The translations under genes were made by a program, and so were the position numbers. The notes beneath the pieces were generated by a model that was given only the letters and a program-made list of their open reading frames with translations, ran no database searches and was not told the origin of the DNA. From Escherichia coli (lineage in GTDB: Bacteria > Pseudomonadota > Gammaproteobacteria > Enterobacterales > Enterobacteriaceae): 64,000 nt of DNA. The DNA lies in NCBI RefSeq assembly GCF_044324785.1, contig NZ_CP172127.1; one strand, given 5' to 3'. Position 1 is the first letter of the stretch, and the number at the start of each line of letters is the position of its first letter. This document shows positions 20,415 through 39,151 of the stretch, piece by piece.

Positions 20415-20429
20415 GTTGGAGTCATTACC

Positions 20430-20578
20430 GTGTTCCCGACAGACGACTCGGTGAAAAAAGTGGTGTGGCTGGCAATCCAGTCTGCGTCCCAGAAATGGAC
20501 GATGCCGTTGAAGGACTGGCGAATGGCAATGAGCCGCTTTATTATCGAGTTCGGTGACCGCCTGGACGGTCACTTCTG
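20430..20578 (+). pseudogene. C-terminal fragment of an IS256/Mutator-family transposase, cut at the IS1 boundary
   Basis: VFPTDDSVKKVVWLAIQSASQKWTMPLKDWRMAMSRFIIEFGDRLDGHF followed by a stop; resembles IS256-family transposase C-termini as recalled; begins right at the IS1 end. Confidence 0.5.
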
Positions 20579-20848
20579 AGAAAAGGCATTTACACAGAAT
20601 CCTAAACAGGCTCATTCAGACAGCTTTTTATTTCACTATGGCTATCCCAGAACAATCAGTACAAATAATAAAAGACATATCACAGCAACACTCCACACTG
20701 ACAGCGCAAAAATAAATGCCGCCTTTGTTATCTTCATATACAAGCAACCTGTCCTGATAATCACCAGCTCATGTTTTATTCTTAACCATTCGTCACAAAT
20801 ACAACAAAAAATAACAGCAGCAGCACCGATATCACAATATAAGATACA

Positions 20849-21304
20849 TTATTCAACACCTGAATCCCCCGCCGCTTCTCTCCCCTTTATAAAACGCCCC
20901 TTCCGGAATCCAGACCGCTGCAGTGCACGACGAAGATGACCGTATACCGTCTTGTCATTCTGCCCCGTCTCTTCTGTAATCTCCGCAATACTTAAACCTC
21001 TGTAATACCGGTTCAGTAACGCTCTGCGCTCTTCCAGCGTCAACACACCTCCGGCCGCTCTCAGATTCAGCATCGACTTATTCAGAATACAGCAGGCCTC
21101 TCCGGTAAAAAGAATACGAACAATATCTGTATACTCATCATCACAGAATACAAAATAATATCTGAATGACCTGCCTGACTGCACCCTTCTTCTGTCTGAT
21201 ATGGCATCTTCTATATATCTGATTCGACTGCTTACGGTTCCAAATACCTCTCGCAGGGCTTTTTCAAAATAAATATCTCTCGTCGCCAGGATTATATCCA
21301 GCAT
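20849..21304 (-). CDS. Putative HTH transcriptional regulator (LuxR/sigma-70 region-4-like C-terminus)
   Basis: C-terminal LTLEERRALLNRYYRGLSIAEITEETGQNDKTVYGHLRRALQR resembles a GerE/region-4 HTH; lies immediately upstream of the adhesin gene on the same strand. Confidence 0.5.
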   Translation of the reverse strand: MLDIILATRDIYFEKALREVFGTVSSRIRYIEDAISDRRRVQSGRSFRYYFVFCDDEYTDIVRILFTGEACCILNKSMLNLRAAGGVLTLEERRALLNRYYRGLSIAEITEETGQNDKTVYGHLRRALQRSGFRKGRFIKGREAAGDSGVE

Positions 21305-21365
21305 CTCTGTACCTCATTATATCCCGGGGGACTCCCCCCGGGACAGATATCTAAATCCTGACCTG

Positions 21366-22631
21366 TCAGAACTCAAAATTCACACCAGCATTCCACGATG
21401 CGGATGACCCACCTGCAGCAACTGCAACTTTTCCTGCCACATTCTCTGTGAAACGGTAGCCCACGCCCACCGCAATGGCCTGCTCATCACGGTAACCACC
21501 AACGGCTGCTGTCGCGTTAAATTTTCCAACACTGTATGGCTGGAAAAGACCGGCCAGTGCCGCGCTCTGGGCTGCACTCTCCCTTAACTCCTTCCGGTTC
21601 TCTTTAATCTGCTCCTGCATATTATTCATTCTCTCTGTCGCCATCTTCTGCCAGGCTTCCGTCAAATCCAGACGATGACTGTTATTCCTTATCGCTGCTG
21701 TATTTGAGGCTATTGCTGCATCCGTCTGCGCCCTGTTCTTCACAAGCACATCGCTGAGATGTTCTGCCTGGCTTTTCGCTTCTTTACGGGCATCCCGTAC
21801 ACTTTTATCTGTATAAGCCCGGGAAACCTGAACTGTTTCATCCGCTTTTTCTTTTATTTCATCCTGAAGAGCAAGAGAAGATGCATCCGTATACGCCACC
21901 GCTGCCGATGTGCCTGCAATAATATCCCTGCTGAGTTCATCACGTACTGCTGTAACCTGACTGTCAGTATGAGCACGGGCATCTCTGTATACACCGCCTA
22001 TCTCACCGCGCAGGGCATCCCCCGACACCCGTACAGCATCTGCAATGGCGTTGTCCATCTGTCCTTTTGTGGCCGCATCACTATCCTTAACACCATCTGA
22101 AACATTTATAATCCGGCGGGTTTCCGGTGCTCCTTTGACACTCTCTCCATATCCCTCAGGCCCGGCACCAACAGATACCACGTTATTTTCTCCCGACACC
22201 TGTGAGCCATGGCCCAGAGCTACAGAACTGGTAGAATCCTGCACAGATGAAAACGCACCAATTGCCGAGCTCTGACGAGAAGAAATAAGTGACGCTTCTT
22301 TTCCTGCAACAGTCCCCCATTCAGAGTCAGCAATAAGTGCATCATGCCCCAGACTCACACTTCCCGGAGAGTTCACAACACCAGAATTATTCCCCAAAAG
22401 CACAGTCCTGTTTGAGTCTAATAAAAAAGAATCATCACCAATCAACCATACATTTCTTACTTTATCAATCGAACGGCCAGCTACTGATTCTCCAACAAGA
22501 AAGCTATTATCTTCGCCAGGTTCAATCGGTCCGATTAAAATATCCTGAGCCTGAGCCTGAGCCGAGAGCAGCAGGGCCACACTCACTGCCAGCGCGCTTT
22601 TCTTTAAAAAAGCATCACGTCTTTTAAGCAT
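21366..22631 (-). CDS. Trimeric autotransporter adhesin (YadA-like C-terminal anchor; Eib/Saa-like)
   Basis: Signal peptide [28 protein letters not shown]; repetitive head, long coiled-coil stalk; C-terminal anchor ...[35 protein letters not shown]; RBS AGGAGA before the ATG at 22631. Confidence 0.7.
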
Positions 22632-23118
22632 TCTGTTATTCTCCTGTATTATTACTTCACCAGCCAGAACGGTAGTGCGGAGCAAAAATACAGTGATAAG
22701 AATCCTCTTTTATTAATTTAATAATGCCAGGAATATTATTGTGTATAATATGCGCCCTCAATTTAAGCAGCAGAAAAGCAATGACGAGAAAATCATTAAA
22801 ATACATAAAGATAAAACATCATAACTATAATTATAATAAGCGCGCTTATTTTAGCATCTGAACATTTAAAGTACTGCTATCACAAAACAATAAAAATCCT
22901 GGGTAATATCTCTGATGATTGAATGAGAAATTCACGATGTCTGGTGAGAATTCTGTTCAAAACGAGGAATGCAGACATACATGTGGCAGGCATGGACTTC
23001 CACCGATTTAACTTTTTTCCTTCCTTGTATTTACACATCACACATTTTGCGCTACAAAAATTTCACGTGGCACGCACCACGTGATCCGTAGAAAAGCCTC
23101 TTGTTACGAATTTCGTAA

Positions 23119-23150
23119 ACCGCACGTCTGTCTGGTCGTGCGGATTTTTT
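23119..23150 (+). terminator. Orphan intrinsic-terminator-like hairpin with U-tract
   Basis: CCGCACG-tctgtctggt-CGTGCGG followed by ATTTTTTAT; no + strand CDS upstream. Confidence 0.4.
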
Positions 23151-23343
23151 ATCCGTCAACTTCACATGAAACCGCCAGATCACTGTTTCCGGATTCAGAC
23201 ATCAGGCATATTATCATCCACAATGTCGTGAACAAGATCACACTTTTGCAATTCCTTTATTGATCGAAAGCAGTTAATCACGGAAATTAATTACCGGAGT
23301 GAAAGCATTACTGCATCGTAAATATCTACCATTTTTGACTACA

Positions 23344-23373
23344 CCCTCTGACAGAATTTTCAGAGGGTTTTTT
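23344..23373 (+). terminator. Orphan intrinsic-terminator-like hairpin with U-tract
   Basis: CCCTCTGA-cagaattt-TCAGAGGG followed by TTTTTTAT. Confidence 0.45.
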
Positions 23374-23827
23374 ATCAGTTTCACCATCCAACCCTGTACG
23401 CCAGAATGGTTTCACTGTCACTCAGTTCTGCTATTGCCTTTTTCATCTCCCTTTACCTTACGTTCTGCCAGAGTCTGAGCCATTTGAACAGGAGGTTATC
23501 ATTGATATCGTGTTCCCGGGCAATACGGGCAACAGAGGCTCCTGGTTGCAAAACCAGTTTAACCATTTGAAGTTTAACTCATTTGAAAATGATCTGCGGG
23601 GTTCTGCGGATAATGTTTTTGCTCCATAACAGGCGCCCACCAGTTTGAAAAGGTGGGCACCTACGTTACCAATACTGGCTTAATGGATACATACGGCGGT
23701 CGGTTCTTACGGTAAAACGACACAACCAAACGCTTCTTATCCTGCAATGAACTGCTTTATTACCGAGTTTAGTGACCGCACAGACACTCACTTTTAAGAA
23801 AAACAGAATGGTAAACAAACTCCATGA

Positions 23828-24007
23828 ATTACAATAGCTCTCTGGCTGCCGCCACAATAGCTTGCGCGGTTAACCCGTACTCTCTCTGTAAAAAGTCCTG
23901 AGTTTCAACCTGGCCATACCGCTCTTTAACCCCCACCCGACGCATGGGCACAGGACAAGTTTCTACAAGCACTTCAGCAACTGCTGAACCTAATCCATTA
24001 TGAATAC
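23828..24007 (-). pseudogene. 3' remnant of a transketolase C-terminal-subunit gene, truncated by the IS1-like element
   Basis: Minus-strand translation ...IHNGLGSAVAEVLVETCPVPMRRVGVKERYGQVETQDFLQREYGLTAQAIVAAARELL* resembles transketolase C-terminal domains; the upstream coding sequence is replaced by the IS1-like element at 24008. Confidence 0.5.
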
Positions 24008-24770
24008 GGTAATGACTCCAATTAGTTGAATTAGGAGTATAATAGCCACTTTTAAGGTTCTTTCATGGTCACAGTTAACCTTCATTGCTCCTGTTGCCAG
24101 TCCGTTCAGGTTTACCGTCACGGGAAGAACCCAAAGGACATGATCGATTTCGCTGCCGTGACTGTCATCGAGTGCTTCAGCTCACTTACCGTTACGAGGC
24201 CCGTAAACCGGGAGTTAAAGAGCAAATCACTGAAATGGCTTTCAACGGTGCCGGAGTTCGCGATACTGCCCGTACGCTGAAAATCGGCATTAATACTGTC
24301 ATCCGGACTTTAAAAAACTCTCGCCACGAAGAATAACGTCATACCCGGTCGCTCATGCTGATATGGCACTCATCTGCGAACTTGATGAGCAATGGAGTTT
24401 TGTCGGCAGTAAAGCGCGACAGCACTGGCTCTGGTACACGTACAACACGAAAACTGGTGGCGTTCTGGCCTACACTTTTGGCCTACGGACTGATTAAACC
24501 TGTCGTGAATTGCTGGCGCTGCTTGCCCTTTTACCATCGGTATGTTGACCACTGACGAATGGGGTAGTTACACCAGAGAGTTACCGAAGGAGAAGCATCT
24601 GACTGGTAAGATTTTTACTCAGCGCATTGAGCGCAACATCTACCTCTGAGAACCCGAATCAAACGTCTGGCCCGCAGAACTATCTGTTTCACGCGCTCTG
24701 TAGAACTTCATGAAAAAGTCATCGGTGCCTTTATCGAAAAATATATGTTCTACTAATTGGAGTCACCACC
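24008..24770 (+). mobile_element. Degenerate IS1-family element (divergent from canonical IS1, disrupted reading frames)
   Basis: IS1-like termini GGTAATGACTCCAA ... TTGGAGTCACCACC; InsA-like ...RFRCRDCHRVLQLTYRYEARKPGVKEQITEMAFNGAGVRDTARTLKIGINTVIRTLKN and InsB-like fragments split across frames. Confidence 0.7.
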
Positions 24771-25321
24771 TTCGTTTGTTTAAAGAACCTGCTGGTCCTG
24801 CCATTAATATTACCTGCTGATTGCTTCACATCCGGATTCCTCGCACTGCGCGCGGGTTATTGTTTCGTTTTCGGCCACGGGGTCGCCAGGGCTCTGTTTG
24901 CAGGCCATGATGGCCTGACCTGTACTGTTTCTCAGGCACTGAGATGTCCGTTTACGCCATTTGTTCCCGGATATCCTTAACCTCTGACGTTTGTTCCCTG
25001 CCCCTCTGTCTGATAACGAATACGCTCACAACGCACAGTACTGAACAATACCGACAACAACATGTCTTACATGAAATTCGCTGTAACATCCACCGGAAAA
25101 CATTTTCAGATATCGGATGAGGTACTACTTCCATTGACAGCGCGAGGTAACAAAATTGATGGTAACTCTGACCATTAACCGTAAACCGCAGGGTATTTTC
25201 AGTAAATCACCGGCAACGCCGCTGCAGAATAAAACGGACACAGCATACAAAATGAAGGCCGGTGACCAGATACCACAGTTGAACGATAAACAGAAACCTG
25301 CTGATAAAACACCGTGGCGAC

Positions 25322-25667
25322 ATGACAAAACGCCAGAGCAAAAACCGTAAGCGCATTATTCGTCTTGTGGAACTCTGGCCTGAGTCATTCAACCGGGAAA
25401 AAAACAAAACCACTTAAAGTGGGGATACCTGACGACCTGATACAGGATATCGCCATCCGAGAACTGGCGTTTGGCGCTGGTACATTACATGCAGCAGTGG
25501 CGTCTTATGTGCAGTCTCCGCGCTATTACCGTGCGTTAATAGCAGGTGGCGCCCGTTACAACCTGAACGGTCAGCCGTGCGGGGAAGTGACACCACAGGA
25601 ACAGAAAGAGGCAGAGACCCGTTTAATGATGCTGAATGACCGACGAAAAGACAGAAAACCTCGTTGA
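25322..25667 (+). pseudogene. FinO/ProQ-family RNA-chaperone-like gene interrupted by a frameshift in an A7 tract
   Basis: Frame 1 MTKRQSKNRKRIIRLVELWPESFNREKNKTT* stops at 25415-25417; the +1 frame continues ...KPLKVGIPDDLIQDIAIRELAFGAGTLHAAVASYVQSPRYYRALIAGGARYNLNGQPCGEVTPQE (FinO-like); junction at GGGAAAAAAACAAAACC (25395-25411). Confidence 0.55.
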
Positions 25668-25684
25668 CTGCACAACAGCGCTGT

Positions 25685-26437
25685 TCACTGAGCTGTAATC
25701 AATGTACAGCGCTGTACCGGGCGATGGGTAATACCGGTCACAACCGGTAACCCCAGAGACAATGCAACTGTTTTTAACGCAATATACTGGCCGGATGTAT
25801 CACCCCGGGCAGCCTGAAAACACCTTTCCACCCGGCATTGTCCGTCAGCACTTATCACCCGCCATGTCTGTTGCAATAAATCCACCCGTTGCGAACATTC
25901 TTCATCAACCGTGGCACTGACCCGTGGATGGCAAATGCTCGTCTGGCTGAGCAGCAACAGGCATCGCATTGTTGCTCCTCCATGTTGTTCCCGCAACCAG
26001 CGTAATACCACCGGTGGTGCTGGACTGGCCGTGTGATTACGTTCAGTAATACGCTCGTGCACCTGTCGGTAAAAGGAAGTACAGAATGCATGAATCTGTT
26101 GTCCGTTGATGTTTCCTTCTGCCGAATGGAGTGTGAAGTGGACGGCCAGCAGACGCGGCCAGTGATCCACCGCCTGCTGAATAAAACGCCGGATTTCCAC
26201 CGGCTCTGAAAGTACGGTTTCGGTTATTTGCACGATTTGATCCCCTTGAATGTTGCTGAACCGGTGTCGGTACGCAGGAAAGCACGCCGAGACCGGTACG
26301 ATGCCTGTTACAGCGAAGAACGAGGAATGACAGACGGGGGCAGCAGGTCGCCAGCACCAGGGACAGGGCTGATTTCCACAATACCAACGCTGGTATTTTG
26401 CACATTGCCAGCGTACCGGCATTACAACACGTTTCAT
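25685..26437 (-). CDS. Hypothetical protein, start overlapping the alpA stop
   Basis: ORF with ATGA overlap to alpA; cysteine/tryptophan-rich N-terminus (MKRVVMPVRWQCAKYQRWYCGNQPCPWCW); no family recognised. Confidence 0.4.
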   Translation of the reverse strand: MKRVVMPVRWQCAKYQRWYCGNQPCPWCWRPAAPVCHSSFFAVTGIVPVSACFPAYRHRFSNIQGDQIVQITETVLSEPVEIRRFIQQAVDHWPRLLAVHFTLHSAEGNINGQQIHAFCTSFYRQVHERITERNHTASPAPPVVLRWLREQHGGATMRCLLLLSQTSICHPRVSATVDEECSQRVDLLQQTWRVISADGQCRVERCFQAARGDTSGQYIALKTVALSLGLPVVTGITHRPVQRCTLITAQ

Positions 26438-26670
26438 GCGGCGACTCCCCGTGATGCTTCGATGCGCTGCTGCATCCACTGCTCCACTTCGCTTCTGTAC
26501 CAGCGGCTGCTGCGGCCCAGTTTGATGGGTTTAGGGAAATGGCCTTCACTGATCAGCTTGTAAAACCATTTGTCGGTCATACCAGTGAAGCTGGTGATGT
26601 AGTTCATGTCGATCAGGGGATCGTCGGCACGCAGCAATACGCTGTCGTGACCTGTCATTGAGGTCAACAT
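26434..26670 (-). CDS. alpA: AlpA-family phage/island transcriptional regulator
   Basis: 78 aa; ...LIDMNYITSFTGMTDKWFYKLISEGHFPKPIKLGRSSRWYRSEVEQWM matches the AlpA HTH family. Confidence 0.8.
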   Translation of the reverse strand: MLTSMTGHDSVLLRADDPLIDMNYITSFTGMTDKWFYKLISEGHFPKPIKLGRSSRWYRSEVEQWMQQRIEASRGVAA

Positions 26671-26738
26671 GGTCAGAATGTCCTCTGTGAGATTTATGAA
26701 TGTTGGGCAAATGCGGGTGAATCTGCTGAGCTGAGCTT

Positions 26739-27311
26739 TCAGAGCTGGCCTGCTACGGGATACCAGGGATTACCGGCGAGGTAACGGGCTTCCGGATCGC
26801 GCACACCACGACGATCGCGGGCGAAATCACTGAACGCCCATATCAGCTCTTTGAGTCTCTCTTCGCAGTCCGGTGAACGGGGATCCAGCAGCACATCCCG
26901 GGTAATCTGCTTCTGGTACGGTGCCGCTTCACCCGGTGACGCGAAGCCCAGTACGTTGCTCCAGGCATCCAGAATCAGCCGATCCAGTTCAGGGCCGTCG
27001 AAATATTCCTCCCTGACGCACAGCACCACGTGGTATTCCGGTTTTTCAGGATGACGAGTCAGGAGCCAGCAGAGATCACGTCCGGGGGTTGCATTCATCA
27101 GCGCACTGACGGTTTCGATAAAGGCCATACCGAACCAGGTTTTTCTGTCGCTGAAGATGTTGCCATGTTCCCCCGGCAGACGAAGCAGGATCCGCCGTAT
27201 TCGGGAGCAGGGCTGCTCACGCAGCGCACGCTCAAGGACACCGATAACTTTGCTCTGATAAGATGGCCAGAAGGGCGCCATGCTATAGTCGAAATAAGGG
27301 ATAGCATTCAT
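26739..27311 (-). CDS. YagK/YfjJ-family protein (inovirus Gp2-type), apparently 5'-truncated relative to its paralogue
   Basis: Similar to the 27668..28399 paralogue (YHVVLCVREEYF vs YHVILLLNKDTW); the paralogue's conserved 5' leader motif lies about 160 bp upstream of this gene. Confidence 0.55.
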   Translation of the reverse strand: MNAIPYFDYSMAPFWPSYQSKVIGVLERALREQPCSRIRRILLRLPGEHGNIFSDRKTWFGMAFIETVSALMNATPGRDLCWLLTRHPEKPEYHVVLCVREEYFDGPELDRLILDAWSNVLGFASPGEAAPYQKQITRDVLLDPRSPDCEERLKELIWAFSDFARDRRGVRDPEARYLAGNPWYPVAGQL

Positions 27312-27667
27312 AAGATATGTTCCGTTATACGCAGCCCACAACGCGTCCTGCCCGTGGATGCGCTGACGTGTTATGGCTTGCGTATGGGGTTGATGGAATA
27401 AGTGAAAAACCGCGGCAGAACGGGAAGATCAGGTAACCGACAAGGGACAGAACACCGGATGCAGGTTCAGAATGAATGATCTCCGTTGACTTCGGTTCAC
27501 ATCATTAAGCAGGACAGTAAGGTTTTACCGACGGAGTGTTTCCAGGAGCGAAAGCAGAGAAAAATACCGTTGCATGACTTCAGGACGACTTTTTCAGAAA
27601 ACGAGCTAAGGGCGTCAGCCAACGTCCTGTAGCATAAGCTCAGGCACCGGATGTCGTTTTACAGGGC

Positions 27668-28399
27668 TCACCTGCCATCCAGTAGACGCCCCGGCCCACG
27701 ACTGCAACCATAATTACGTTGCCCGGAACCGTTATGCAACTTCGTTTCATATTTCACGAGATAACTGGCTCTGTTCCGGGCTTTCTGCATCGCTTCCACA
27801 TCACCACGCTTGACCCAGAGCACAGCGGATTCACCCGGCTTTTTGTCTGAAGCCTTCCTGGTATCAGAACATCCACCCGACAAAGGCGTATCATCGGAAG
27901 AAGGGCGAGCATCAGATGATGTCGGTTTACGGAAAGGCGTCCGCCTGGAAAAATGAACCAGTCCATTACCCTGCCAGGGCTCAAGATGCAGAGCACTACA
28001 CCATGCCAGCTTGATCAGTGTCGCCAGCGAAGAAGGAACGGTGAAATCCCCTGGCGAGCACCAGGTATCTTTGTTGAGCAGCAATATCACGTGATAATGT
28101 TTCCTGCCTTTTTCCTTGCCAAACTCCCGGCACCAGAAATAACGCAGAGTGGTTGCACGCACACGCTTGTTGGCACGTCGTTTTTTCCGCTGGTAAGCCT
28201 GAATTTTGGCTTTCAGGGATGCAAAAAAACGAGAAATCACCGCTGAATCCGGATCGGGATCCATGATGGTGACAGGCATATACTCAGGGAAACGTAAATC
28301 CACCCGGATTAACGAGACGGCACGGTGCTGCGCCAGGGCACTGTCGAGAAGGCTGTCAAAACGGGATAACCAGTAAGCATTATGTATTGGTTGATTCAT
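27668..28399 (-). CDS. YagK/YfjJ-family protein (inovirus Gp2-type)
   Basis: 243-aa ORF; RBS GGAG about 10 nt upstream of the ATG; family assignment from recalled CP4-type island proteins. Confidence 0.6.
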   Translation of the reverse strand: MNQPIHNAYWLSRFDSLLDSALAQHRAVSLIRVDLRFPEYMPVTIMDPDPDSAVISRFFASLKAKIQAYQRKKRRANKRVRATTLRYFWCREFGKEKGRKHYHVILLLNKDTWCSPGDFTVPSSLATLIKLAWCSALHLEPWQGNGLVHFSRRTPFRKPTSSDARPSSDDTPLSGGCSDTRKASDKKPGESAVLWVKRGDVEAMQKARNRASYLVKYETKLHNGSGQRNYGCSRGPGRLLDGR

Positions 28400-29319
28400 G
28401 ATGAGAGATCTCCGTTGATTTGGATTGACTTCACATCATTAATCACCGCAGTAAAACTTTACGGCGTCCTGTCATTAAGCAACACCAGTGGCTCCTGATT
28501 AGAACAGAATGAGTTTCCCACGAACAAAAAGACAAACCTACACGCAGGGTAAAAACACGCAACAACAGCATGAATGGATTTGAAAACAATATGGATGACG
28601 AAAAATGTCAAAAGTGAAACGGATCAACAGAACGTGCAAACAAAACGTCAGAAACGCAATCAGAGCACTTTCTGGCGCTGTGAATCAACAACAACACCAA
28701 AACCTACAGCTTAACCACATTACTCAATCACGAATGCGAATGACACGTTTAAAACCTGTTTACAGATAACGCCGTAACACGATCATCCCCATCACCATCA
28801 GAATCGATTTTCTCATCCCGAAAATGTTACGTTTCACTACGCACCATAAAAACGATTAACCATCGATAACGTAAATCTCATCTGAATCAAAAAACCAAAA
28901 CCAATCATCACACTTTCGCAATGCAAGAAGAAAAACCACATCATGACGAAAACAATGACCTTACATGAAAAAGCAAAACGTCAGGAATCGTTAATGCCTC
29001 AATCTGATTGTTATCAAAACATCCAGAAAGTCGTTTAACAGAATCGTCGTAAGCACATCGAAAAGAACGTCAGATCACCTCAGGAAAGTTCGGGTTGATT
29101 TAGCGTAAAGATACTTTTCTCAGCTTAACGTCGAAACACAAACCAAAAACCACAAACAACCAAAGCTCAGGAAAGGTTAAACGTCACATCAGTAAAATCG
29201 AATAGCAGATTGATTGCTTAAACAGAAAGGTTTTACAGCAGCTTTAAACTGATTTTAGCTAACGTAAAGATTTACTAAACTGGATGAGTTTCAGACAAAG
29301 CAATGTGTACAGCAATGCT

Positions 29320-29500
29320 TAATGAAAACACTTATAGGGCTGTTTATGAAAACACGTGTATGTCTGGTAAAACACTTAGTAGAAAATACGTGTATAACAC
29401 TTACTGAAATGCTTAGTAAAAATACTTAGTAAAATATGTGTAGAATTATCTATTTAAAAAGATATGTATATAACACTTAATAAAAACATGTGTATATAGT
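29320..29500 (+). repeat. Cluster of at least 7 degenerate 11-bp direct repeats (AAAA[CT]A[CT][GT]T[AG][TG]); iteron-like
   Basis: aaaacacttat, aaaacacgtgt, aaaacacttag, aaaatacgtgt, aaaatacttag, aaaatatgtgt, aaaacatgtgt within about 180 bp of an ORF-free AT-rich stretch. Confidence 0.6.
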
Positions 29501-30138
29501 ATCATACCGACATTCTCAACATCTTCAGACTTCCATACATACTGGGTGTTGATTTCTCACTTTTACAGCCAGCATGGAGTTTTCTGTCCTAAAAACAGAG
29601 CAGATTTACTCTGGAATTATTTTTCTGCCCCCGTATTTCAGGCCCCAGAAAAGACAATCCGAAGCAAACCGTTTGTCAGCCTCCATATCATCTTTTACCC
29701 CCGGAAAGTGATCGCGTTTTACAACCAGAATGACAGCCATACTGATTATGTCGTCTCCCGGCCCCCTTCACATATAACATGCATGTCTGTCATTGCTTAC
29801 TGCTCCACATGACCGGATTTCACATACAGGATGCACATTCAGTGTTTTTATCGCCACTATAACAGACAGATTACTGTCGTCTTTACTCTTCAGATTGTTA
29901 ATCTGACCACAAGAACAGCCGAACGGCAAAACGCCCTCCACAAGGGGCACATGAACCATAGTTGATAGCATGTTTTTCCTAATCAAGGAATAGTTCAGGA
30001 ATATTTTATTGCATTAATAACTGGCGAATAATCGTTCTGTGAACACAAAATGCTTTTATTTGTAAATTTTATTGCATTGCACTCGTTTTATTGATATGGG
30101 GTTTAATAACAGATAACCCGGAAAGAAGGAGAAAACAG

Positions 30139-30930
30139 ATGACATTACGGATTAACGATCAGGGGCGAGATAAACAGAATCAATTTTTATCGAAAAATGG
30201 AGAAAATCTGAATTCGTTAAAATCGCGTCATGTGCAGGATAGGCATTTACCTGAATGGCTTAAGGATAAAGTTGCAGCATTCTGGTTTTGTCTGGTGATA
30301 AAGGATATGAAAGTGTCAGGGAGCAGTTACTATGAACTTACCATGCAACTTCCCACTTCTGAAGAATCTGTTTGCATCAGTAAGCTGTCATCCTCAACCC
30401 ATGAGATTCGGCTGGAGATCATCAGGCGATGGATTGATAGTGTAGCACAGATAGAAACGGAAGCTTTTACTAAAAATCTCGTTGATGCCATCTATAAAAA
30501 CTGGAAGGAAATCGGGAACAAAAACCAGGCTACATGGCTTAAAAAAAATCCGGAACAACTCGAGTGGGCATGGAAATATATTAACATTCGTATTCCCGAG
30601 TCACATTTAACCTGGTTTTGCCCCGTCAATAACGAAGAGAAACGCATTGCCATCTTAGCATTGCTTAAAATACTGTATCCCGGAGATATACCATGCCAGT
30701 ACAACGACAAAGAGTTTCATGTCGGGATCTGCGCTGAAGAACATTTTTACAGAAGAATGCACGACGCTTTCAGAAAACAGTTTATCGACGGGAAAAAAGA
30801 TAAACGGGTACAAATTAACGTAAAGATATCACCGTCCGCAAAAAGCGCTCTGGACAGACTGACCAGAGCGAGGAAAACAACACAGCAGGCTATTCTGGAA
30901 CAACTGATTCTGAACGGTAGACTGGATTAA
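30139..30930 (+). CDS. Hypothetical protein (263 aa), possible ribbon-helix-helix-like C-terminus
   Basis: RBS AAGGAG 8 nt before the ATG at 30139; no recognisable catalytic motif; C-terminal ...KISPSAKSALDRLTRARKTTQQAILEQLI. Confidence 0.5.
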   Translation: MTLRINDQGRDKQNQFLSKNGENLNSLKSRHVQDRHLPEWLKDKVAAFWFCLVIKDMKVSGSSYYELTMQLPTSEESVCISKLSSSTHEIRLEIIRRWIDSVAQIETEAFTKNLVDAIYKNWKEIGNKNQATWLKKNPEQLEWAWKYINIRIPESHLTWFCPVNNEEKRIAILALLKILYPGDIPCQYNDKEFHVGICAEEHFYRRMHDAFRKQFIDGKKDKRVQINVKISPSAKSALDRLTRARKTTQQAILEQLILNGRLD

Positions 30931-31928
30931 CTTTCACTACTTCCACTCCTGGCAGTTTTCCTCTTTTTGTAGTGTCTCCCGGCTGCAGGCATCAGGTACT
31001 TTTCCGTCATTTCGTTGCAGAACTCTTCAATGTAGTTAATCAGCTTCTGGTGTGCTTTCACCTTTTCTTCCCCGGGGGACGCTTTCAGATAAATGTCCTC
31101 CTTTTCCACAAGTGTATTTATAAACTCTCCCGGACATCCCTGGTTATAAAGCAACGTGAAAAACAACACATTCCCCAGTCTCTCCAGTAACTGCGATTTA
31201 ACCCTGTATTGTTGTTTGCTGAGGATTGATTGTTTTATAAAGCTTAGTCTTGTTAAAAGTTGTTCAAATCCCGGTTCCAGTTTAAAAACAGATTTTAATA
31301 CCAGGGACTGATACTCCTGATAAAAAAGTTCAAACGTCGGGGATGCAGACTGACGAACAGATTTGGCTACAACCCATGGACTAAATCCCATGATTGGGAT
31401 TTCCTTCGCTCCCTCCAGCGCACTCAGAGGTAGTCCAGCAATCCATGCGTCCAGCTTAGCCGAATCAATATCCCCGCTCAAAACCTCATACAAACTGCCC
31501 GTGAACGGTTGAGTCGGTTTTTTTGTTGTTTTACCTTCTGATTGCCTGAATCCATCCACTTTTCTCCGGATATTACGCGGAATCAGCATAAAAGGCGGGA
31601 CATTAAGTGATAAACGTTTACCCGTCATACGATACCAGTGGCCCACCTCAACCTTAATCCGTGTATCTGGCCTTGTATCTGGCCTTGTATCTGGCCTTAG
31701 CTCAAGTGCTATTATGTTAAGCAGGTACAGATAACGCACCGTATAACAGTCAAAATGTTTCTCCGGATCAAACGGCTCTGATCGTTCTCTGCACACAAGT
31801 CCGCTGCGCTTCAGTATTCGCTGGGTATCTTTCCAGGCCTTACTCTGAAGAATGGTGGTAACTCTGGCTTTATTAGCAATCTCACGCAGCGCATCACTTT
31901 GTTGTGCCGTCATCTCTTCCCTCCACAC
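30927..31928 (-). CDS. Hypothetical protein (333 aa) with internal (TRPD)x3 repeat, divergent from the YfjP-like GTPase gene
   Basis: ORF convergent with the previous gene (stop codons overlap); in-frame 12-bp tandem repeat; no family recognised. Confidence 0.5.
   Translation of the reverse strand: MWREEMTAQQSDALREIANKARVTTILQSKAWKDTQRILKRSGLVCRERSEPFDPEKHFDCYTVRYLYLLNIIALELRPDTRPDTRPDTRIKVEVGHWYRMTGKRLSLNVPPFMLIPRNIRRKVDGFRQSEGKTTKKPTQPFTGSLYEVLSGDIDSAKLDAWIAGLPLSALEGAKEIPIMGFSPWVVAKSVRQSASPTFELFYQEYQSLVLKSVFKLEPGFEQLLTRLSFIKQSILSKQQYRVKSQLLERLGNVLFFTLLYNQGCPGEFINTLVEKEDIYLKASPGEEKVKAHQKLINYIEEFCNEMTEKYLMPAAGRHYKKRKTARSGSSES
31663..31698 (+). repeat. 12-bp perfect tandem repeat x3 (GTATCTGGCCTT), in-frame within the 333-aa gene
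   Basis: Three identical units encoding RPDTRPDTRPDTR on the minus strand. Confidence 0.9.
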
Positions 31929-32019
31929 TTTGTCACTCCAGATTTTTTCACGTCCATATTACCTGAATGATAAACCGGATTAGTGTGATCCGGTTCAGCG
32001 AAATCAACAGGATACCGGT

Positions 32020-32904
32020 ATGTCATTCAGCCATTCTTCCCTCTCTGCACAAGTGAAATCATATCTGACGTTTCTTCCTGAAGAAATTCGCCAGAAAATC
32101 CTTGAACATCTCCACGGTGTTATTCATTACGAGCCCGTGATTGGCATTATGGGTAAATCCGGCACAGGCAAAAGCAGCCTGTGTAATGCCATTTTTCAGT
32201 CCCATATCTGCGCCACGCATCCCCTGAACGGCTGCACCCGCCAGGCTCATCACCTCACCCTGCAGATCGGTGAACGCAGAATGACGCTGGTCGATCTGCC
32301 CGGCATTGGTGAGACACCGCAGCATGATCAGGAATACCGGGCACTTTATCATCAGTTGCTACCGGAACTGGATCTGATTATCTGGATCCTGCGGGCTGAT
32401 GAACGTGCGTATGCTGCCGATATTGCCATGCATCAGTTTTTACTGAATGAAGATGCCGATCCCTCGCGTTTTCTGTTTGTTCTCAGCCATGCCGATCGCG
32501 TGTTTCCTGCTGAAGAATGGAACGACACAGAAAAATGCCCGTCCCGTCAGCAGGAACTCTCACTGGCGACAGTAACAGCCCGGGTGGCCACCCTGTTCCC
32601 GTCATCATTTCCGGTACTCTCCGTTGCAGCGCCTGTCGGCTGGAATCTTCAGGCACTGGTGTCACTGATGATCCACGCACTGCCACCACAGGCAACCAGC
32701 GCGGTTTATTCGCATATCCGGAATGAAAAGCGCACTGCGCAGGATCAGCAACACGCACAGCAGGCTTTTGGTGACGCCATCGGCCAGAGTTTTGACGCTG
32801 CCATTGCCCGGTTCAGCTTTCCGGCCTGGATGCTGCAGCTTCTGCGCAAAGCCCGTGATCGCATTATCCGCCTGCTGATCACACTGTGGGATCGCCTGTT
32901 CTGA
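32020..32904 (+). CDS. YfjP/YeeP/YkfA-family GTPase (50S ribosome-binding GTPase domain)
   Basis: P-loop GIMGKSGTGKSSLCNAIF, then DLPGIGE (G3); conserved first gene of the CP4-type island terminal module. Confidence 0.8.
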   Translation: MSFSHSSLSAQVKSYLTFLPEEIRQKILEHLHGVIHYEPVIGIMGKSGTGKSSLCNAIFQSHICATHPLNGCTRQAHHLTLQIGERRMTLVDLPGIGETPQHDQEYRALYHQLLPELDLIIWILRADERAYAADIAMHQFLLNEDADPSRFLFVLSHADRVFPAEEWNDTEKCPSRQQELSLATVTARVATLFPSSFPVLSVAAPVGWNLQALVSLMIHALPPQATSAVYSHIRNEKRTAQDQQHAQQAFGDAIGQSFDAAIARFSFPAWMLQLLRKARDRIIRLLITLWDRLF

Positions 32905-33013
32905 ATGTCCCCGCTTTTTGACCGGCCCCGGCGATAACCAGGAAACGCATTTCCGGTTGCGTCACCACAATGCTGAAGGGCTTCGGTAAACCCTCATTCA
33001 TTTCATCCATCAG

Positions 33014-33044
33014 GCCGCGTCTTCTCCGTGAGACGCGGCTTTTT
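33014..33044 (+). terminator. Intrinsic terminator after the GTPase gene
   Basis: GCCGCGTCT-tctccgtg-AGACGCGGC followed by TTTTTC. Confidence 0.55.
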
Positions 33045-33089
33045 CATTGATTACGTCATTCAGTCTTAACCACTGATAAGGAGCAAAGT

Positions 33090-33908
33090 ATGCGATTAGC
33101 CAGTCGTTTTGGTTATGCGAACCAGATACGCCGTGACCGTCCGCTGACCCGTGAAGAGCTGATGCACCATGTGCCCGGGATTTTCGGGGAAGATAAACAC
33201 ACCTCCCGGAGCCGGAACTATACATACATCCCCACCATCACCGTGCTGGAAAGCCTGCAGCGGGAAGGCTTTCAGCCATTCTTCGCCTGCCAGACCCGCG
33301 TACGTGACCCGGGCCGCCGGGGGTATACCAAACACATGCTGCGTCTGCGCCGTGACGGGGAGATAAACGGACAACATGTCCCTGAAATCATCCTGCTGAA
33401 CTCCCATGACGGTACCTCCAGCTACCAGATGCTGCCGGGTTACTTCAGGTTCGTCTGCCAGAACGGATGCGTCTGCGGTCAGTCTCTGGGGGAAGTGCGT
33501 GTTCCGCACCGGGGAAATGTGGTGGACAGAGTCATTGAAGGGGCTTACGAGGTGGTGGGCGTGTTTGACCGGATAGAGGAGAAGCGTGATGCCATGCAGT
33601 CGCTGGTCCTGCCGCCACCGGCACGCCAGGCGCTGGCACAGGCGGCACTGACTTACCGTTATGGTGACGAACATCAGCCCGTCACCACCGCCGACATTCT
33701 GACACCACGACGCCGGGAGGATTACGGTAAGGACCTGTGGAGTGCTTATCAGACCATCCAGGAGAATATGCTGAAAGGCGGGATTTCCGGTCGCAGTGCA
33801 AAAGGAAAACGTATCCATACCCGGGCCATTCACAGCATTGATACCGATATAAAACTCAACCGCGCATTGTGGGTGATGGCAGAAACGCTGCTGGAGAGCA
33901 TGCGCTGA
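33090..33908 (+). CDS. DUF932-family protein (YfjQ-like)
   Basis: 272 aa; position and size match the YfjQ slot of CP4-type islands; recalled similarity only. Confidence 0.7.
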   Translation: MRLASRFGYANQIRRDRPLTREELMHHVPGIFGEDKHTSRSRNYTYIPTITVLESLQREGFQPFFACQTRVRDPGRRGYTKHMLRLRRDGEINGQHVPEIILLNSHDGTSSYQMLPGYFRFVCQNGCVCGQSLGEVRVPHRGNVVDRVIEGAYEVVGVFDRIEEKRDAMQSLVLPPPARQALAQAALTYRYGDEHQPVTTADILTPRRREDYGKDLWSAYQTIQENMLKGGISGRSAKGKRIHTRAIHSIDTDIKLNRALWVMAETLLESMR

Positions 33909-33999
33909 TGCTGTTTCCCTGAAAGTGCAGCCCTGACTCACGTCTGTACCAGTCCCCAGGCATTCTTCCATTCATTTACTTTTTATAAGGAATCATCTC

Positions 34000-34485
34000 A
34001 TGACAACCTTTTCGCATAGCTCCACCACACCTTCTGTTTCCGTAACTACTGCATCAGGGAATAACCAGTCTCAACTGGTTGCCACTCCCGTCCCTGATGA
34101 ACAGCGCATCAGCTTCTGGCCGCAGCATTTTGGCCTCATTCCACAGTGGGTGACCCTGGAGCCCCGTGTCTTCGGCTGGATGGACCGTCTGTGCGAAGAC
34201 TACTGCGGTGGTATCTGGAATCTGTACACCCTGAACAACGGCGGGGCATTTATGGCCCCCGAACCGGATGATGATGATGACGAAACATGGGTACTGTTCA
34301 ATGCCATGAACGGTAACCGCGCTGAAATGAGCCCGGAAGCCGCCGGCATTGCTGCCTGTCTGATGACGTACAGTCATCACGCCTGCCGTACGGAGTGTTA
34401 TGCCATGACGGTTCATTATTACCGTCTGCGGGATTACGCCCTGCAGCATCCGGAATGCAGCGCCATTATGCGCATCATTGACTGA
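34000..34485 (+). CDS. Antirestriction protein (ArdB/KlcA-like; YfjX/YafX family)
   Basis: 161 aa with acidic stretch PEPDDDDDETW and ...GGIWNLYTLNNGGAFMAPE, typical of KlcA/ArdB-like island proteins. Confidence 0.7.
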   Translation: MTTFSHSSTTPSVSVTTASGNNQSQLVATPVPDEQRISFWPQHFGLIPQWVTLEPRVFGWMDRLCEDYCGGIWNLYTLNNGGAFMAPEPDDDDDETWVLFNAMNGNRAEMSPEAAGIAACLMTYSHHACRTECYAMTVHYYRLRDYALQHPECSAIMRIID

Positions 34486-34500
34486 AAGGGGGCCGGAACA

Positions 34501-34977
34501 ATGCAACAGATTTCCTTTCTGCCCGGAGAAATGACAACCAGAGAGCGCAGCCTCATTCAGCGGGCCCTGAAAGCCCTGGACCGCCATCTTCATGAACCCG
34601 GCGTGGCCTTCACCTCCACCCGTGCGGCACGGGAATGGCTGATTCTGAACATGGCGGGACTGGAGCGTGAAGAATTCCGGGTGCTGTATCTGAACAACCA
34701 GAATCAGCTGATTGCCGGTGAAACCCTCTTCACCGGCACCATCAACCGCACGGAAGTCCATCCCCGGGAAGTGATTAAACGCGCCCTGTACCACAATGCC
34801 GCTGCCGTGGTGCTGGCACACAATCACCCGTCCGGTGAAGTCACACCCAGTAAGGCAGACCGCCTTATTACGGAACGTCTGGTACAGGCACTGGCCCTGG
34901 TGGATATCCGGGTGCCGGACCATCTGATAGTCGGTGGCAGCCAGGTTTTCTCCTTTGCCGAACATGGTCTGCTTTAA
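34501..34977 (+). CDS. RadC-like JAB/MPN-domain protein (YeeS/YfjY/YkfG family)
   Basis: JAMM motif HNHPSGEVTPSKADRLITERL; 158 aa. Confidence 0.85.
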   Translation: MQQISFLPGEMTTRERSLIQRALKALDRHLHEPGVAFTSTRAAREWLILNMAGLEREEFRVLYLNNQNQLIAGETLFTGTINRTEVHPREVIKRALYHNAAAVVLAHNHPSGEVTPSKADRLITERLVQALALVDIRVPDHLIVGGSQVFSFAEHGLL

Positions 34978-35039
34978 CCCGTCACAACCACATCACACCT
35001 GTTTTCACTTTTATCTTCTGTCTTCAGAGGTATCCCATT

Positions 35040-35261
35040 ATGAAAATCATCACCCGTGGTGAAGCCATGCGTATTCACCAACAGCATCCTGCATCCCGTC
35101 TTTTTCCGTTCTGTACCGGCAAATACCGCTGGCACGGTGGCACTGAAGCGTATACCGGTCGTGAAGTGCAGGATATTCCCGGTGTGCTGGCCGTGTTTGC
35201 AGAACGCCGTAAGGACAGTTTTGGTCCGTATGTCCGGCTGATGAGCGTCACCCTGAACTGA
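35040..35261 (+). CDS. DUF987-family small protein (YeeT/YkfH/YpjJ-like)
   Basis: 73 aa; conserved slot between the radC-like gene and the TA pair. Confidence 0.6.
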   Translation: MKIITRGEAMRIHQQHPASRLFPFCTGKYRWHGGTEAYTGREVQDIPGVLAVFAERRKDSFGPYVRLMSVTLN

Positions 35262-35275
35262 GTCAGGGCATTCTG

Positions 35276-35920
35276 ATGAGCAGAATTATCACCATCACAG
35301 TGTATACGCTGGATGAACTTTCCTGCCCGGCACGGGAAAAAGCCCGCGACGGGTACCGTCAGCATCATGCTGACAGCAGCTGGTATGAAAACGTGTATGA
35401 GGACTTCAGGGCGGTCTGTGACATTGTCGGGATTGCCCTCCGCCAGCGAGTTATCCGGCTCAGCAGCGGCAGGTTTATGGAAGAGCCGTGCATCTGGTTC
35501 AGCGGCTTCAGCAGCCAGGGGGACGGAGCCTGTTTTGACGGGCGCTGGCACTGGCAGCCGGCAACAGCCAGGAAAATCCGGGAATATGCCCCGCAGGACC
35601 GTGAGCTTCATCGTATCGCGGATGCCCTGCAGGCGGTGCAGAAGCGTAACTTCCGGCAGCTTCAGGCTGAAATCCGCCACCGGGGACGCTACTGCCATCC
35701 GTACAGCATGGATATCACCGTCACCCGGGACAGTCCGACTGGTCAGGCTATGACAGCCGATGCGGAAGCCGCTGTCAGCGAAGCCCTGCGCGACCTGGCC
35801 TTCTGGCTGTACCGTCAACTGGAAAACGAGTACGACCAGATGACCTCAGACGCCGCTGTGGATGAGGCCATTCTCATCAATGCATACATCTTCACCGAAA
35901 CCGGTCAGCGCACCGGCTGA
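35276..35920 (+). CDS. Hypothetical protein (214 aa) in the variable slot between the DUF987 gene and cbeA
   Basis: ORF with consistent coding composition; no motif recognised; the overlapping antisense ORF 35075..35818 is rejected. Confidence 0.5.
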   Translation: MSRIITITVYTLDELSCPAREKARDGYRQHHADSSWYENVYEDFRAVCDIVGIALRQRVIRLSSGRFMEEPCIWFSGFSSQGDGACFDGRWHWQPATARKIREYAPQDRELHRIADALQAVQKRNFRQLQAEIRHRGRYCHPYSMDITVTRDSPTGQAMTADAEAAVSEALRDLAFWLYRQLENEYDQMTSDAAVDEAILINAYIFTETGQRTG

Positions 35921-35969
35921 CCTGTCATCGTTAAACCATTCTTAACCACTTTTCAGAGAGGATTTTATC

Positions 35970-36338
35970 GTGTCAGACACACTCTCCGGGATAACTCATC
36001 CCGACGACAATCACGACCGCCCCTGGTGGGGGCTTCCCTGCACAGTGAGGCCCTGTTTTGGCGCCCGTCTGGTGCAGGAGGGTAACCGGTTGCATTACCT
36101 TGCCGACCGCGCCGGCATCAGAGGCCGGTTCAGCGATGCGGATGCATACCATCTGGACCAGGCCTTTCCGCTGCTGATGAAACAACTGGAACTCATGCTC
36201 ACCAGCGGTGAACTGAATCCCCGCCATCAGCATACCGTCACGCTGTATGCAAAAGGGCTGACCTGCGAAGCCGACACCCTCGGCAGTTGTGGTTACGTTT
36301 ATCTGGCTGTTTATCCGACGCCCGAAACGAAAAAGTAA
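35970..36338 (+). CDS. cbeA: CbeA/YeeU/YfjZ-family type IV antitoxin
   Basis: MSDTLSGITHPDDNHDRPWWGLPCTVRPCFGARLVQEGNRLHYLADRAGIRGRF...YVYLAVYPTPE matches the family. Confidence 0.8.
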   Translation: MSDTLSGITHPDDNHDRPWWGLPCTVRPCFGARLVQEGNRLHYLADRAGIRGRFSDADAYHLDQAFPLLMKQLELMLTSGELNPRHQHTVTLYAKGLTCEADTLGSCGYVYLAVYPTPETKK

Positions 36339-36428
36339 ACCACCGGAATAACCTTCTGCTCCGGCCAGGTGTTTTCACCACGCCACTCTCCCCATAATTT
36401 AATCTCTCATATCAGGAAAATCTTCAGT

Positions 36429-36839
36429 ATGAAATTATTACCCGACACACATGTACGGGAGGCATCGTGCTGCCCGTCTCCCGTCACCATCTGGCAGACA
36501 CTGCTCATCCGTCTGCTGGACCAGCACTATGGCCTCACACTGAATGACACACCGTTCGCTGATGAACGTGTGATTGAGCAGCATATTGAGGCCGGCATTT
36601 CACTGTGCGATGCGGTGAACTTTCTCGTTGAAAAATACGCACTGGTACGTACCGACCAGCCGGGATTCAGCGCAGGAGCCCCGTCGCAGTTAATCAACAG
36701 CATCGATATTCTCCGGGCCCGCCGGGCAACAGGCCTGATGACACGTAATAACTACAGAATGGTAAATAACATTACCCTGGGTAGCATCCGGGGGCGAAAC
36801 GATGAAACTTTCCCTGACGCTGGAAGCCGACAGCGTTAA
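36429..36839 (+). CDS. cbtA: CbtA/YeeV/YpjF-family toxin (cytoskeleton-binding toxin)
   Basis: ...[67 protein letters not shown]...[16 protein letters not shown] matches the CbtA family; start set at MKLLPDTH. Confidence 0.75.
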
Positions 36840-37227
36840 CGTACAGGCGCTGAACATGGGGCGAATTGTCGTTGACATTGATGGTGTTGAGCTCACTGAA
36901 CTGATTAACAAGGTCGCTGAAAACGGTTATTCACTCCGCGTGGTGGATGAACGTGACGCTACCGAAACACCGGCGACTTCTGCCAGCTCTCATCAGTTGC
37001 CGGAAGACAATACAGTGATACAGAGCGTGATGCCATTAACCACTGAAACAGCGCTGGATATCCTCATTGCGTGGCTGCAGGACAATATCGACTGCGGGTC
37101 CGGAATTATTTTCGACAACGATGAGGATAAAACGGATTCGGCAGCACTGCTGCCCTGTATCGAACAGGCCAGAGCAGATATCCGCACCCTGCGCCAGCTG
37201 CAGCAGCTTCTGCAACAGAACCGGTGA
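36802..37227 (+). CDS. YeeW-like hypothetical protein
   Basis: 141-aa ORF in the slot occupied by yeeW downstream of cbtA in CP4-44 (recalled); overlaps the cbtA 3' end. Confidence 0.45.
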
Positions 37228-37323
37228 GTCTTACTCATCATCTCACTCACCAGACTTCATTCCACTGACACCAGCCTGAACAGGGCTGGCGTTTTCATTT
37301 ATCTGCAAAAAGGAATATCGATT

Positions 37324-38190: not shown

Positions 38191-38261
38191 AAGAGGTATT
38201 TTACAATTCGCGAATATTAACTATTATTAATTGATAGTAATCAATCGGCGAGAAAATAACC

Positions 38262-39114: not shown

Positions 39115-39126
39115 AATTCATATAAA

Positions 39127-39151
39127 CGGACCTCCACGGAGGTCCGTTTTT
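39127..39151 (+). terminator. Intrinsic terminator (native pheU-downstream type)
   Basis: CGGACCTCC-ac-GGAGGTCCG followed by TTTTT. Confidence 0.6.

Follow-up and report, generated by a model that had tools for sequence, protein, structure and literature searches.

The 64-kb window analysed here (64,000 nt of the Escherichia coli contig NZ_CP172127.1, assembly GCF_044324785.1, numbered from its first letter) holds a CP4/P4-like E. coli genomic island, in which a 1.7-kb gene-free interval (28400-30138) separates a minus-strand YfjJ-like gene from two hypothetical genes. The left part of this interval, hereafter the A-rich region, is strongly A-rich on the plus strand and is the subject of this study. 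An earlier reading made from the letters alone (the sequence-only reading) had placed it, as 28440-29300, upstream of the YfjJ-like gene and next to a cluster of iteron-like repeats. Both placements are borne out: the start codon of the gene lies at 28399, and 13-14-nt direct repeats adjoin the region at about 29300-29500. The best promoter-like site of the plus strand comes to the right of these repeats, and the two hypothetical genes follow.

The YfjJ-like gene encodes a 243-aa protein, labelled "inovirus Gp2 family protein" in RefSeq, that matches the Pfam families YagK_YfjJ_C (9.8e-36) and REP_ORF2-G2P (5.4e-10) above cut-off. The protein carries an HUH motif (HYHVILLL) together with a YLVKY motif, has replication-initiation matches in PHROGs and displays an HUH-nickase fold. 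To the left of its gene, the minus strand also encodes AlpA and two further YfjJ-like paralogues, while beyond the hypothetical genes to the right stands a CP4-type set encoding a GTPase, DUF932, antirestriction, RadC, DUF987 and YeeU/CbtA proteins.

As for the A-rich region itself, the bases between 28440 and 29300 number 346 A, 196 C, 137 G and 182 T (40.2, 22.8, 15.9 and 21.1 %), against about 25 % of each in the whole window. A+T thus amounts to 61 % in a host genome of 50 % G+C, and by our own binomial arithmetic the A:T count of 346:182 is about 7 standard deviations off parity. Over all 860-nt segments of the 64 kb, AT skew has a mean of 0.002 and a standard deviation of 0.096; its highest value, 0.317, belongs to the segment starting at 28481, and the top 15 segments start at 28221-28561 and all overlap the A-rich region, where the fractions of A (0.408) and of A+C (0.63) are likewise maximal. 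The claim that A far exceeds T on the plus strand therefore stands, with the top skew of the 64 kb. Taken in 100-nt steps, AT skew does not drop under 0.2 over about 28450-29200, except for a value of 0.12 in the step starting at 28750, and G falls to a minimum of 10-11 % within 28700-28900; the G content of 28680-28980 is among the lowest values of the window. The skewed core is better delimited as about 28450-29250. No open reading frame (ORF) of at least 60 aa is found in any frame, as had been claimed, the longest ones inside having 54, 50 and 48 aa.

Elsewhere in the window, a second A-rich stretch (25050-25500, AT skew 0.34) corresponds to a frameshifted plus-strand gene of the ProQ/FinO family, and its composition is ordinary coding composition. 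The lowest G of the window is found at about 20590-20900 (10.3 % in 300 nt, C/G 2.8), within a minus-strand gene for a YadA-like adhesin.

Distribution and divergence of the interval

Of 5426 complete E. coli genomes, 1877 carry the interval according to a megablast search with 28400-29520, at up to 8 places per genome, nearly all of them chromosomal, with 77-100 % identity; in 1085 of the 1877, a single place accounts for 80 % or more of the query. The copies amount to roughly 3300. Among the carriers is APEC O1, where NC_008563.1 3347979-3349480 matches window 28400-29976. The matching DNA mostly bears no annotation. In all 13 copies that were fetched, the interval directly follows a Gp2-family gene and is gene-free for 1.45-1.96 kb. 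Only four plasmids have the region, all of them from E. coli and bearing the same piece of the island. Phage records show no similarity to it, the cryptic prophages CP4-6, CP4-44 and CP4-57 of K-12 lack it, so that K-12 data sets are of no help, and a search of genome contigs with a single YfjJ-like protein yielded only two close loci. The interval was not found in the literature searched, where six conserved 16-18-mers gave no match and queries for YfjJ, YagK and Gp2 nothing on the region.

Together, genome copies and copies from metagenome pattern scans make up a set of 60 distinct copies. One scanned locus (L062, Ga0102589_1005083) was excluded from this set, since the 20-nt pattern TTAACCATCGATAACGTAAA occurs in it by chance, within an unrelated 565-aa ORF; exact-pattern metagenome scans need hit-by-hit checking before use. 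The 60 copies are 77-100 % identical to the window and share its composition, with fractions of 0.390-0.411 for A, 0.205-0.242 for C, 0.139-0.171 for G and 0.204-0.227 for T. Another locus (L009, JAEYLX010000008.1), labelled "MAG: Bacillota bacterium", has a Gp2-family gene with 87 % identity and the same A-rich interval, and is most likely mis-binned or contaminating Enterobacteriaceae DNA. Few accessory elements of E. coli are as common as the CP4/P4-like islands with AlpA, YfjJ/Gp2-like, GTPase, antirestriction, RadC and CbtA genes, and these islands carry virulence, defence and resistance cargo. The A-rich region is a real and widespread compositional feature of this medically relevant island family that does not appear in the literature searched.

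The identity and conserved-block figures given here come from pairwise comparison of 14 copies. The bulk of the A-rich region (28471-28840 and 28901-29300) is 85 % identical, while the adjacent YfjJ-like gene reaches 94 % (93 % at fourfold sites) and two segments stand out, 28400-28470 with 97 % and 28841-28900 with 96 %. The conserved blocks are listed in Table 1. Length varies as well, with 60 distinct indel events in 830 nt among the 60 copies, which include steps of (CATCAC)n, tandem duplications of 9 and 17 nt and a 21-nt insertion consisting of A and C only. The copies form deep haplotype classes whose combination with flanking genes is shuffled, so that the interval is a mosaic. In strain GF60, an IS3 element sits inside the interval and breaks the match at about window position 29440.

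Larger replacements also occur. In two variant islands (L101 and L102), a non-homologous 1155-nt cassette stands in place of 28577-28876, and the conserved block at 28842-28897 is missing. Because this cassette holds an intact gene, the A-rich interval qualifies as a cargo insertion site. The gene (WP_000778605.1; plus strand, 2581-3111 in L101 and 2575-3105 in L102) encodes a 176-aa protein that has no hit besides a weak NikA-like one under threshold (E 0.011), and a tblastn search for it in the window comes up empty. Related islands holding an intact gene, merely decayed in the present copy, were the case that the sequence-only reading had set against its own claim. The two variants do have an intact gene at this place, but their cassette is non-homologous and is not an intact form of this DNA.

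Among more distant relatives, 10 of 11 loci with YfjJ homologues of 30-42 % identity show no comparable skew upstream. The exception, in Providencia heimbachae, is a 449-nt interval with 44 % A, 32 % T, 18 % C and 7 % G on the same strand, lying between a YfjJ homologue (39 % identical) and a divergent GTPase gene; a block resembling a promoter and some short direct repeats lie inside it. Aligned to the E. coli interval, it scores 107, which falls short of significance (reference scores 85.7 +/- 9.5, maximum 114), and the blocks that look alike by eye, ATTAAT.ACCGCAGTAAAAC and TATAGTATCATACCGACAT, are unproven; homology of the two intervals is only a lead. Since 10 of the 11 loci are unskewed and the Providencia alignment is not significant, the long A-rich stretch is specific to the E. 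coli lineage of these islands.

Table 1. Features of the gene-free interval and of the genes at its ends (positions in the 64-kb window).
Feature	Position	Strand	Remarks
YfjJ / "inovirus Gp2 family" gene, 243 aa	27668..28399	-	A-rich region on its promoter side
Conserved 5' block of the YfjJ-like gene	28400..28470	-	Shine-Dalgarno-like GGAGA; 97 % vs 94 % for the gene
Imperfect 9+9 bp inverted repeat CGCAGTAAA-AC-TTTACGGCG, operator-like	28447..28466		From reading the sequence; conserved
A-rich, G-poor, ORF-free core	28450..29250	+	A 40 %, C 23 %, T 21 %, G 16 %
Conserved blocks AATCAACAACAA and CCAAAACCTACAGCTTAA	28683..28714		Invariant or nearly so in 14 copies
Conserved block TTAAAACCTGTTTACAGATAAC	28749..28770		14-copy alignment
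(CATCAC)n hexanucleotide microsatellite remnant	28784..28801	+	Unit number variable; indel steps of 6, 12, 18, 24 and 30 nt
Conserved block ATCAGAATCGATTTTCT containing the palindrome AATCGATT	28797..28813		14-copy alignment
Most conserved internal block, CACCATAAAAACGATTAACCATCGATAACGTAAA..TCATCTGAATCAAAAAACCA	28842..28897		96 % vs 85 % in its flanks
Three conserved right-edge blocks	29210..29286		Include the best minus-strand sigma-70-like site
Iteron-like 13-14-nt direct repeats AAAACACTTAGTA / AAAATACGTGTAT	29300..29500	+	Copy number varies among islands by whole-unit indels
Best plus-strand promoter-like site, TTAATA-17-TATCAT; alternative -10 TATAGT	29477..29505	+	Conserved CCGACATTCTCAA follows
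263-aa hypothetical protein, right end of the interval	30139..30930	+	H1 annotation

At the right-hand side of the interval, Tandem Repeats Finder reports only the neighbouring 13-nt array (29369-29434), and the combination of repeats, promoter-like site and CCGACATTCTCAA has the look of an origin or of a promoter controlled by an activator or initiator. Inside the A-rich region, a plus-strand promoter-like site (TTTACA-16-GATCAT) overlaps the block at 28749-28770, and its -10 element is lost in other copies. The scores of the promoter-like sites are those expected by chance.

Several features of the neighbouring genes complete the description of the locus. Two pieces of 12-13 nt, GATCTCCGTTGA and TTCACATCATTAA, from the 5' block of the 243-aa gene (28407-28442) recur in the same order at 27478-27508, upstream of the next gene, which encodes a 190-aa hypothetical protein; this recurrence suggests an operator shared by the two genes. 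On the other side, the C terminus of the 263-aa protein gives a weak hint of a ribbon-helix-helix (RHH) domain (Pfam RHH_1, E 0.065, under cut-off). A 333-aa hypothetical protein (minus-strand ORF 30927-31928) holds the tandem peptide repeat RPDTRPDTRPDTR, and neither Pfam nor PHROGs gives a family for it or for the 376- and 407-aa proteins that replace it in other islands.

Coding potential, folding and mutation

The sequence-only reading had offered a decayed gene as one explanation of the region, and some copies do contain ORFs of 82-95 aa, at times annotated as a hypothetical protein by the Prokaryotic Genome Annotation Pipeline (PGAP). The period-3 signal is absent, however, with a z of -1.0 against 2.4-6.5 in the neighbouring genes, and six-frame translations of the region contain no Pfam family. 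Indel runs are divisible by three in only 18 of 60 cases. The single ORF that is found in all 14 copies yields frame-shifted, unrelated peptides, so that no ORF is conserved, and the ORFs of different copies differ in both frame and sequence. In a search space of 5.8 billion proteins, the longest plus-strand ORF of any copy (82 aa) has relatives at this E. coli locus only, of 50-101 aa, and the gene of the variant islands is unrelated. On these results, decay of a protein-coding gene is very improbable.

The region was also said to be a possible structured or antisense RNA locus, and a long, conserved and unannotated intergenic region could in principle hold a structured non-coding RNA or a riboswitch-like element. 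A cmscan of 20000-40000 against Rfam 15 at E of at most 1 gives no match in the region, and one unrelated weak hit outside it. Compared with shuffles, the RNA folds with a z of 0.07 on the plus strand and +1.7 on the minus strand. RNAalifold on 10 diverse copies gives a structure conservation index of at most 0.57 on the plus strand, with half of the segments below 0.1, and only one of 34 alignment-fold segments beats column shuffles (minus strand, 28860-28964, -6.9 kcal/mol). No complementarity of the region to the rest of the window was found, and its richness in indels also tells against conserved structure. Neither a structured nor an antisense RNA is upheld by these searches, and we find the structured form hardly credible.

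While it lacks structure of its own, the region is extreme in how little it folds. On the plus strand, no other 800 nt of the window yield an RNA as hard to fold as 28451-29250, whose mean minimum free energy per 100 nt is -10.4 kcal/mol (window: -23.3 +/- 7.3), while the foldability of the minus-strand RNA is not extreme. Because dinucleotide shuffles fold as poorly, this property is purely one of composition; an A+C-rich, G+T-poor sequence has few pairing partners. As single-stranded DNA, the four conserved segments that were folded do not exceed shuffles either (z -1.5 to +0.3); the inverted repeat at 28447-28466 is predicted to form a small hairpin, and the 101-nt segment around it is not above shuffles.

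The region is equally poor in repeats and motifs. Within 28470-29300, the best local self-alignment scores 24 against 23.9 +/- 3.2 in shuffles, and no convincing tetramer or k-mer enrichment is seen in the A-rich part; AACGT and ACGTCAG occur in modest excess, without conservation from copy to copy, and by our estimate the excess would not be significant after correction for the number of k-mers tested. A-tracts show no phasing (AA autocorrelation of -0.03 to -0.06 at lags 10-11). The high-affinity H-NS motif TCGATAAATT occurs once with at most two mismatches, where 2.4 +/- 1.6 sites are expected, and Hfq-type runs of four ARN also occur once, against 2.2 +/- 1.8 in shuffles.

The rare-variant spectrum, which comprises 141 events with a minor allele count of at most 4 among the 60 copies, bears on where the skew comes from. 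Per base, it is strand-symmetric, with 0.189 for G>A and 0.196 for C>T, and 0.089 for A>G and 0.118 for T>C. The net flux over the 141 events is -11 for A, +18 for T, -14 for C and +7 for G, and the implied equilibrium is about.32 A,.30 T,.18 C and.19 G, with wide intervals; rare variants thus tend to shift the region toward strand symmetry. Fourfold sites of the plus-strand island genes reveal no island-wide skew (AT skew -0.01, GC skew +0.04). A present strand-biased mutation process, such as transcription-driven deamination or deamination of single-stranded DNA, is at odds with the symmetric spectrum and the unskewed neighbouring fourfold sites. It follows from the same two observations that no present mutation process makes the skew and that mutation tends to erode it.

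Readings of the skewed region

The region is non-coding, unstructured, non-repetitive, fast-evolving and insertion-tolerant, and it contains conserved blocks. The reading to which we incline, tentatively and at somewhat less than even chances, is that of a weakly constrained spacer whose skew is inherited and whose function is confined to short blocks. The A-rich region would then be a spacer in the 1.7-kb divergent control region of a CP4/P4-like island, between the 5' block of the HUH-nickase-fold gene and the iteron-flanked promoter-like site that faces the downstream genes. Sequence-specific function would reside only in four or five invariant blocks of 17-56 nt, most likely bound by proteins as operators or as host-factor or nickase accessory sites. 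The remaining 80 % or so would be weakly constrained filler, open to change through point mutation and slippage as well as through small tandem duplications and the exchange of cassettes. The A>T and C>G skew of this filler would have been handed down from an ancestral sequence and not made by present mutation bias, and the bulk would provide distance and insulation between two divergent modules, as well as a tolerated site for cargo insertion.

The lack of coding, RNA and repeat signals, the many indels, the tolerated cassette and IS3 element, the symmetric rare-variant spectrum and the unskewed fourfold sites of island genes argue for such a spacer, and so do two further points: the identity of the bulk is below that of the fourfold sites of the adjacent gene, yet invariant blocks lie inside it, and the skew is not general upstream of YfjJ-like genes. 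Other points weigh against it. The origin of 0.8 kb with 40 % A and 16 % G is left unexplained. Composition is the same in all 60 copies, although neutral drift at this divergence would also keep it so. Being the least foldable 800 nt in 64 kb is a strand-specific property for which a pure spacer has no need. Finally, the Providencia interval shares the excess of A and the marked lack of G on this strand, a hint of long-term maintenance.

That poor folding might itself be the function. In one version, which we rate as rather unlikely, the plus-strand RNA would act through its composition, an untranslated, G-poor and nearly structure-free transcript serving as a long Rho-dependent barrier. Such a barrier would keep YfjJ-operon or antisense transcripts out of the iteron/promoter module and of the downstream GTPase, antirestriction and toxin-antitoxin genes. 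It is favoured by the least structured 800 nt of the window, by the lack of ORFs, by the very low G of 28680-28980 and by an excess of C over G in 113 of 145 78-nt segments on the plus strand (78 %), compared with 26 of 145 on the minus strand (18 %); a composition that stays constant despite fast sequence change also fits a constraint on composition only. Yet C makes up only 23 % of a region that is A-rich and not C-rich, YC dinucleotides are fewer (10.0 per 100 nt) than in the window on average (12.1), the region is 10 times as long as known rut (Rho utilization) sites, and shuffles fold equally poorly, leaving nothing beyond composition. Moreover, no convincing plus-strand promoter is seen at the left end, where the best promoter-like sites score 7.5-8.6, which is chance level. 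A second version looks to DNA: the HUH nickase would nick in or near the interval for rolling-circle replication or mobilisation of the island, the non-pairing A/C-rich strand being an easily unwound, hairpin-free entry or template zone and the conserved blocks and 13-nt repeats being binding sites for the nickase and accessory proteins. The sequence-only reading had likewise named a replication- or partition-related region, and the context fits, given the HUH motifs, REP_ORF2-G2P and PHROGs replication-initiation matches and HUH-nickase fold of the adjacent gene product. The layout of nickase gene, non-coding region, iteron-like repeats and weak-RHH gene recalls origin-of-transfer (oriT) and replication-origin modules, the cassette protein has its weak NikA-like hit, and a strand asymmetry asks for an explanation at the level of single strands. 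In the A-rich part itself, no hairpin, nick-site-like element, repeat array or enriched short motif was found, and its four folded conserved segments are no more stable as single-stranded DNA than shuffles. Known oriT and rolling-circle origins are structured and span 40-500 bp, the RHH-type hits of the flanking and cassette proteins are under Pfam cut-offs, most distant YfjJ-like loci are without such a region, and the top conserved block is absent from the two variant islands. We consider an origin-flanking role unlikely. Common to both versions is the idea that composition alone is under selection so that one strand never folds, with the element working in single-stranded form beside the HUH nickase gene, a proposal that we likewise rate as rather unlikely. 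As RNA, such an element may be a Rho gate, permissive toward the nickase operon and terminating toward the antirestriction/toxin operon; as DNA, it may let the island family start rolling-circle replication or mobilisation from an entry zone free of hairpins.

Transcription might also cross the region in the other direction, from a candidate promoter near 29250-29280, making it a long 5' leader of the YfjJ-orf-alpA operon whose untranslated, U/G-rich and C-poor RNA would escape Rho through its lack of C. The roughly 100 nt next to the YfjJ start offer no acceptable sigma-70 promoter (the closest candidate has a spacer of 14-15 nt), and the best minus-strand sigma-70-like site (TTTAGT-16-TAAAAT, 29279-29252, score 9.3) falls in conserved blocks. 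The minus strand is G+T-rich, the usual polarity of a sense strand, and island variants with a minus-strand gene directly upstream make co-transcription through the interval conceivable. But the score of 9.3 is at about chance level, since each strand of the 64 kb has 45 hits with a score of at least 9, or one in every 1.4 kb, and in about 4-5 of 61 aligned copies a 13-nt insertion lies between the two hexamers. The foldability of the minus-strand RNA is ordinary and without conserved structure, low C does not account for 40 % U, and in the variant islands a plus-strand gene would lie inside the supposed leader. A leader of this kind seems improbable to us.

All considered, the A-rich region is probably a relic-like spacer with embedded control sites, and its standing as a new kind of element is not established. 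The adjoining gene is shown to encode a protein with an HUH-nickase fold, and the interval, which is conserved, unannotated and non-coding, has a defined anatomy that runs from a control block through the skewed spacer and the iteron-like repeats to a promoter-like site. This anatomy makes the interval the place to look for an origin or a regulatory switch of the island. A functional skew would be one of the rare instances in which selection acts on strand composition and not on sequence, and a composition-only element, if true, would represent an unusual functional class present in about a third of E. coli genomes. A skew with no function would instead caution that even a strong anomaly of composition can be a relic, inherited and slowly eroding.

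Comparison with known systems

Known rut regions and long leaders subject to Rho include lambda tR1 and the leaders of rpoS, mgtA and corA. Like them, the A-rich region is untranslated, G-poor, richer in C than in G and unstructured on one strand; unlike them, it is about 10 times longer and consists of 40 % A, with C at 23 % in place of a C-rich composition.

A different parallel is found in the Ff phages, in which an intergenic region of about 0.5 kb beside gene II contains the plus-strand origin and an AT-rich enhancer and is dominated by stable hairpins. Here too, an AT-rich non-coding interval lies by the gene of a Gp2-type HUH nickase, and the T-rich strand is the sense strand of that gene. 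The resemblance ends with structure, since in the present region both strands fold no better than shuffles and no nick site is recognisable. Similarly, an oriT can lie between divergent mobilisation genes, as in RSF1010 (mobA-oriT-mobC) and R64 (oriT-nikA). The E. coli interval shares with these a nickase gene on one side, a weak-RHH gene on the other and AT-rich non-coding DNA in between, but no inverted repeat with a nic motif was found in it, its RHH hits are sub-threshold and it is several times longer.

Iteron origins with an AT-rich unwinding element are known from plasmids, P4 and phage-inducible chromosomal islands (PICI/SaPI), the unwinding elements being 50-100 bp long. The direct adjacency of 13-nt direct repeats of variable copy number to AT-rich DNA is reminiscent of them, while the A-rich part is without 13-mer-type repeats, DnaA boxes or a repeat family. 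With 61 % A+T in a genome of 50 % G+C and a location in an island, the region also resembles island DNA silenced by H-NS. It departs from such DNA in that the motif is not enriched and the A-tracts are unphased, and H-NS binding neither needs nor explains strand asymmetry.

A parallel in gene content is offered by the Pseudomonas islands I23, I44 and I55, which combine an integrase, AlpA, RadC and an inovirus Gp2-like protein and whose core-gene functions are unknown (PMC12595487). The excerpted text of that report describes no non-coding A-rich region in these islands, but the core gene set that it gives for them matches the one around the A-rich region (PMC12595487).

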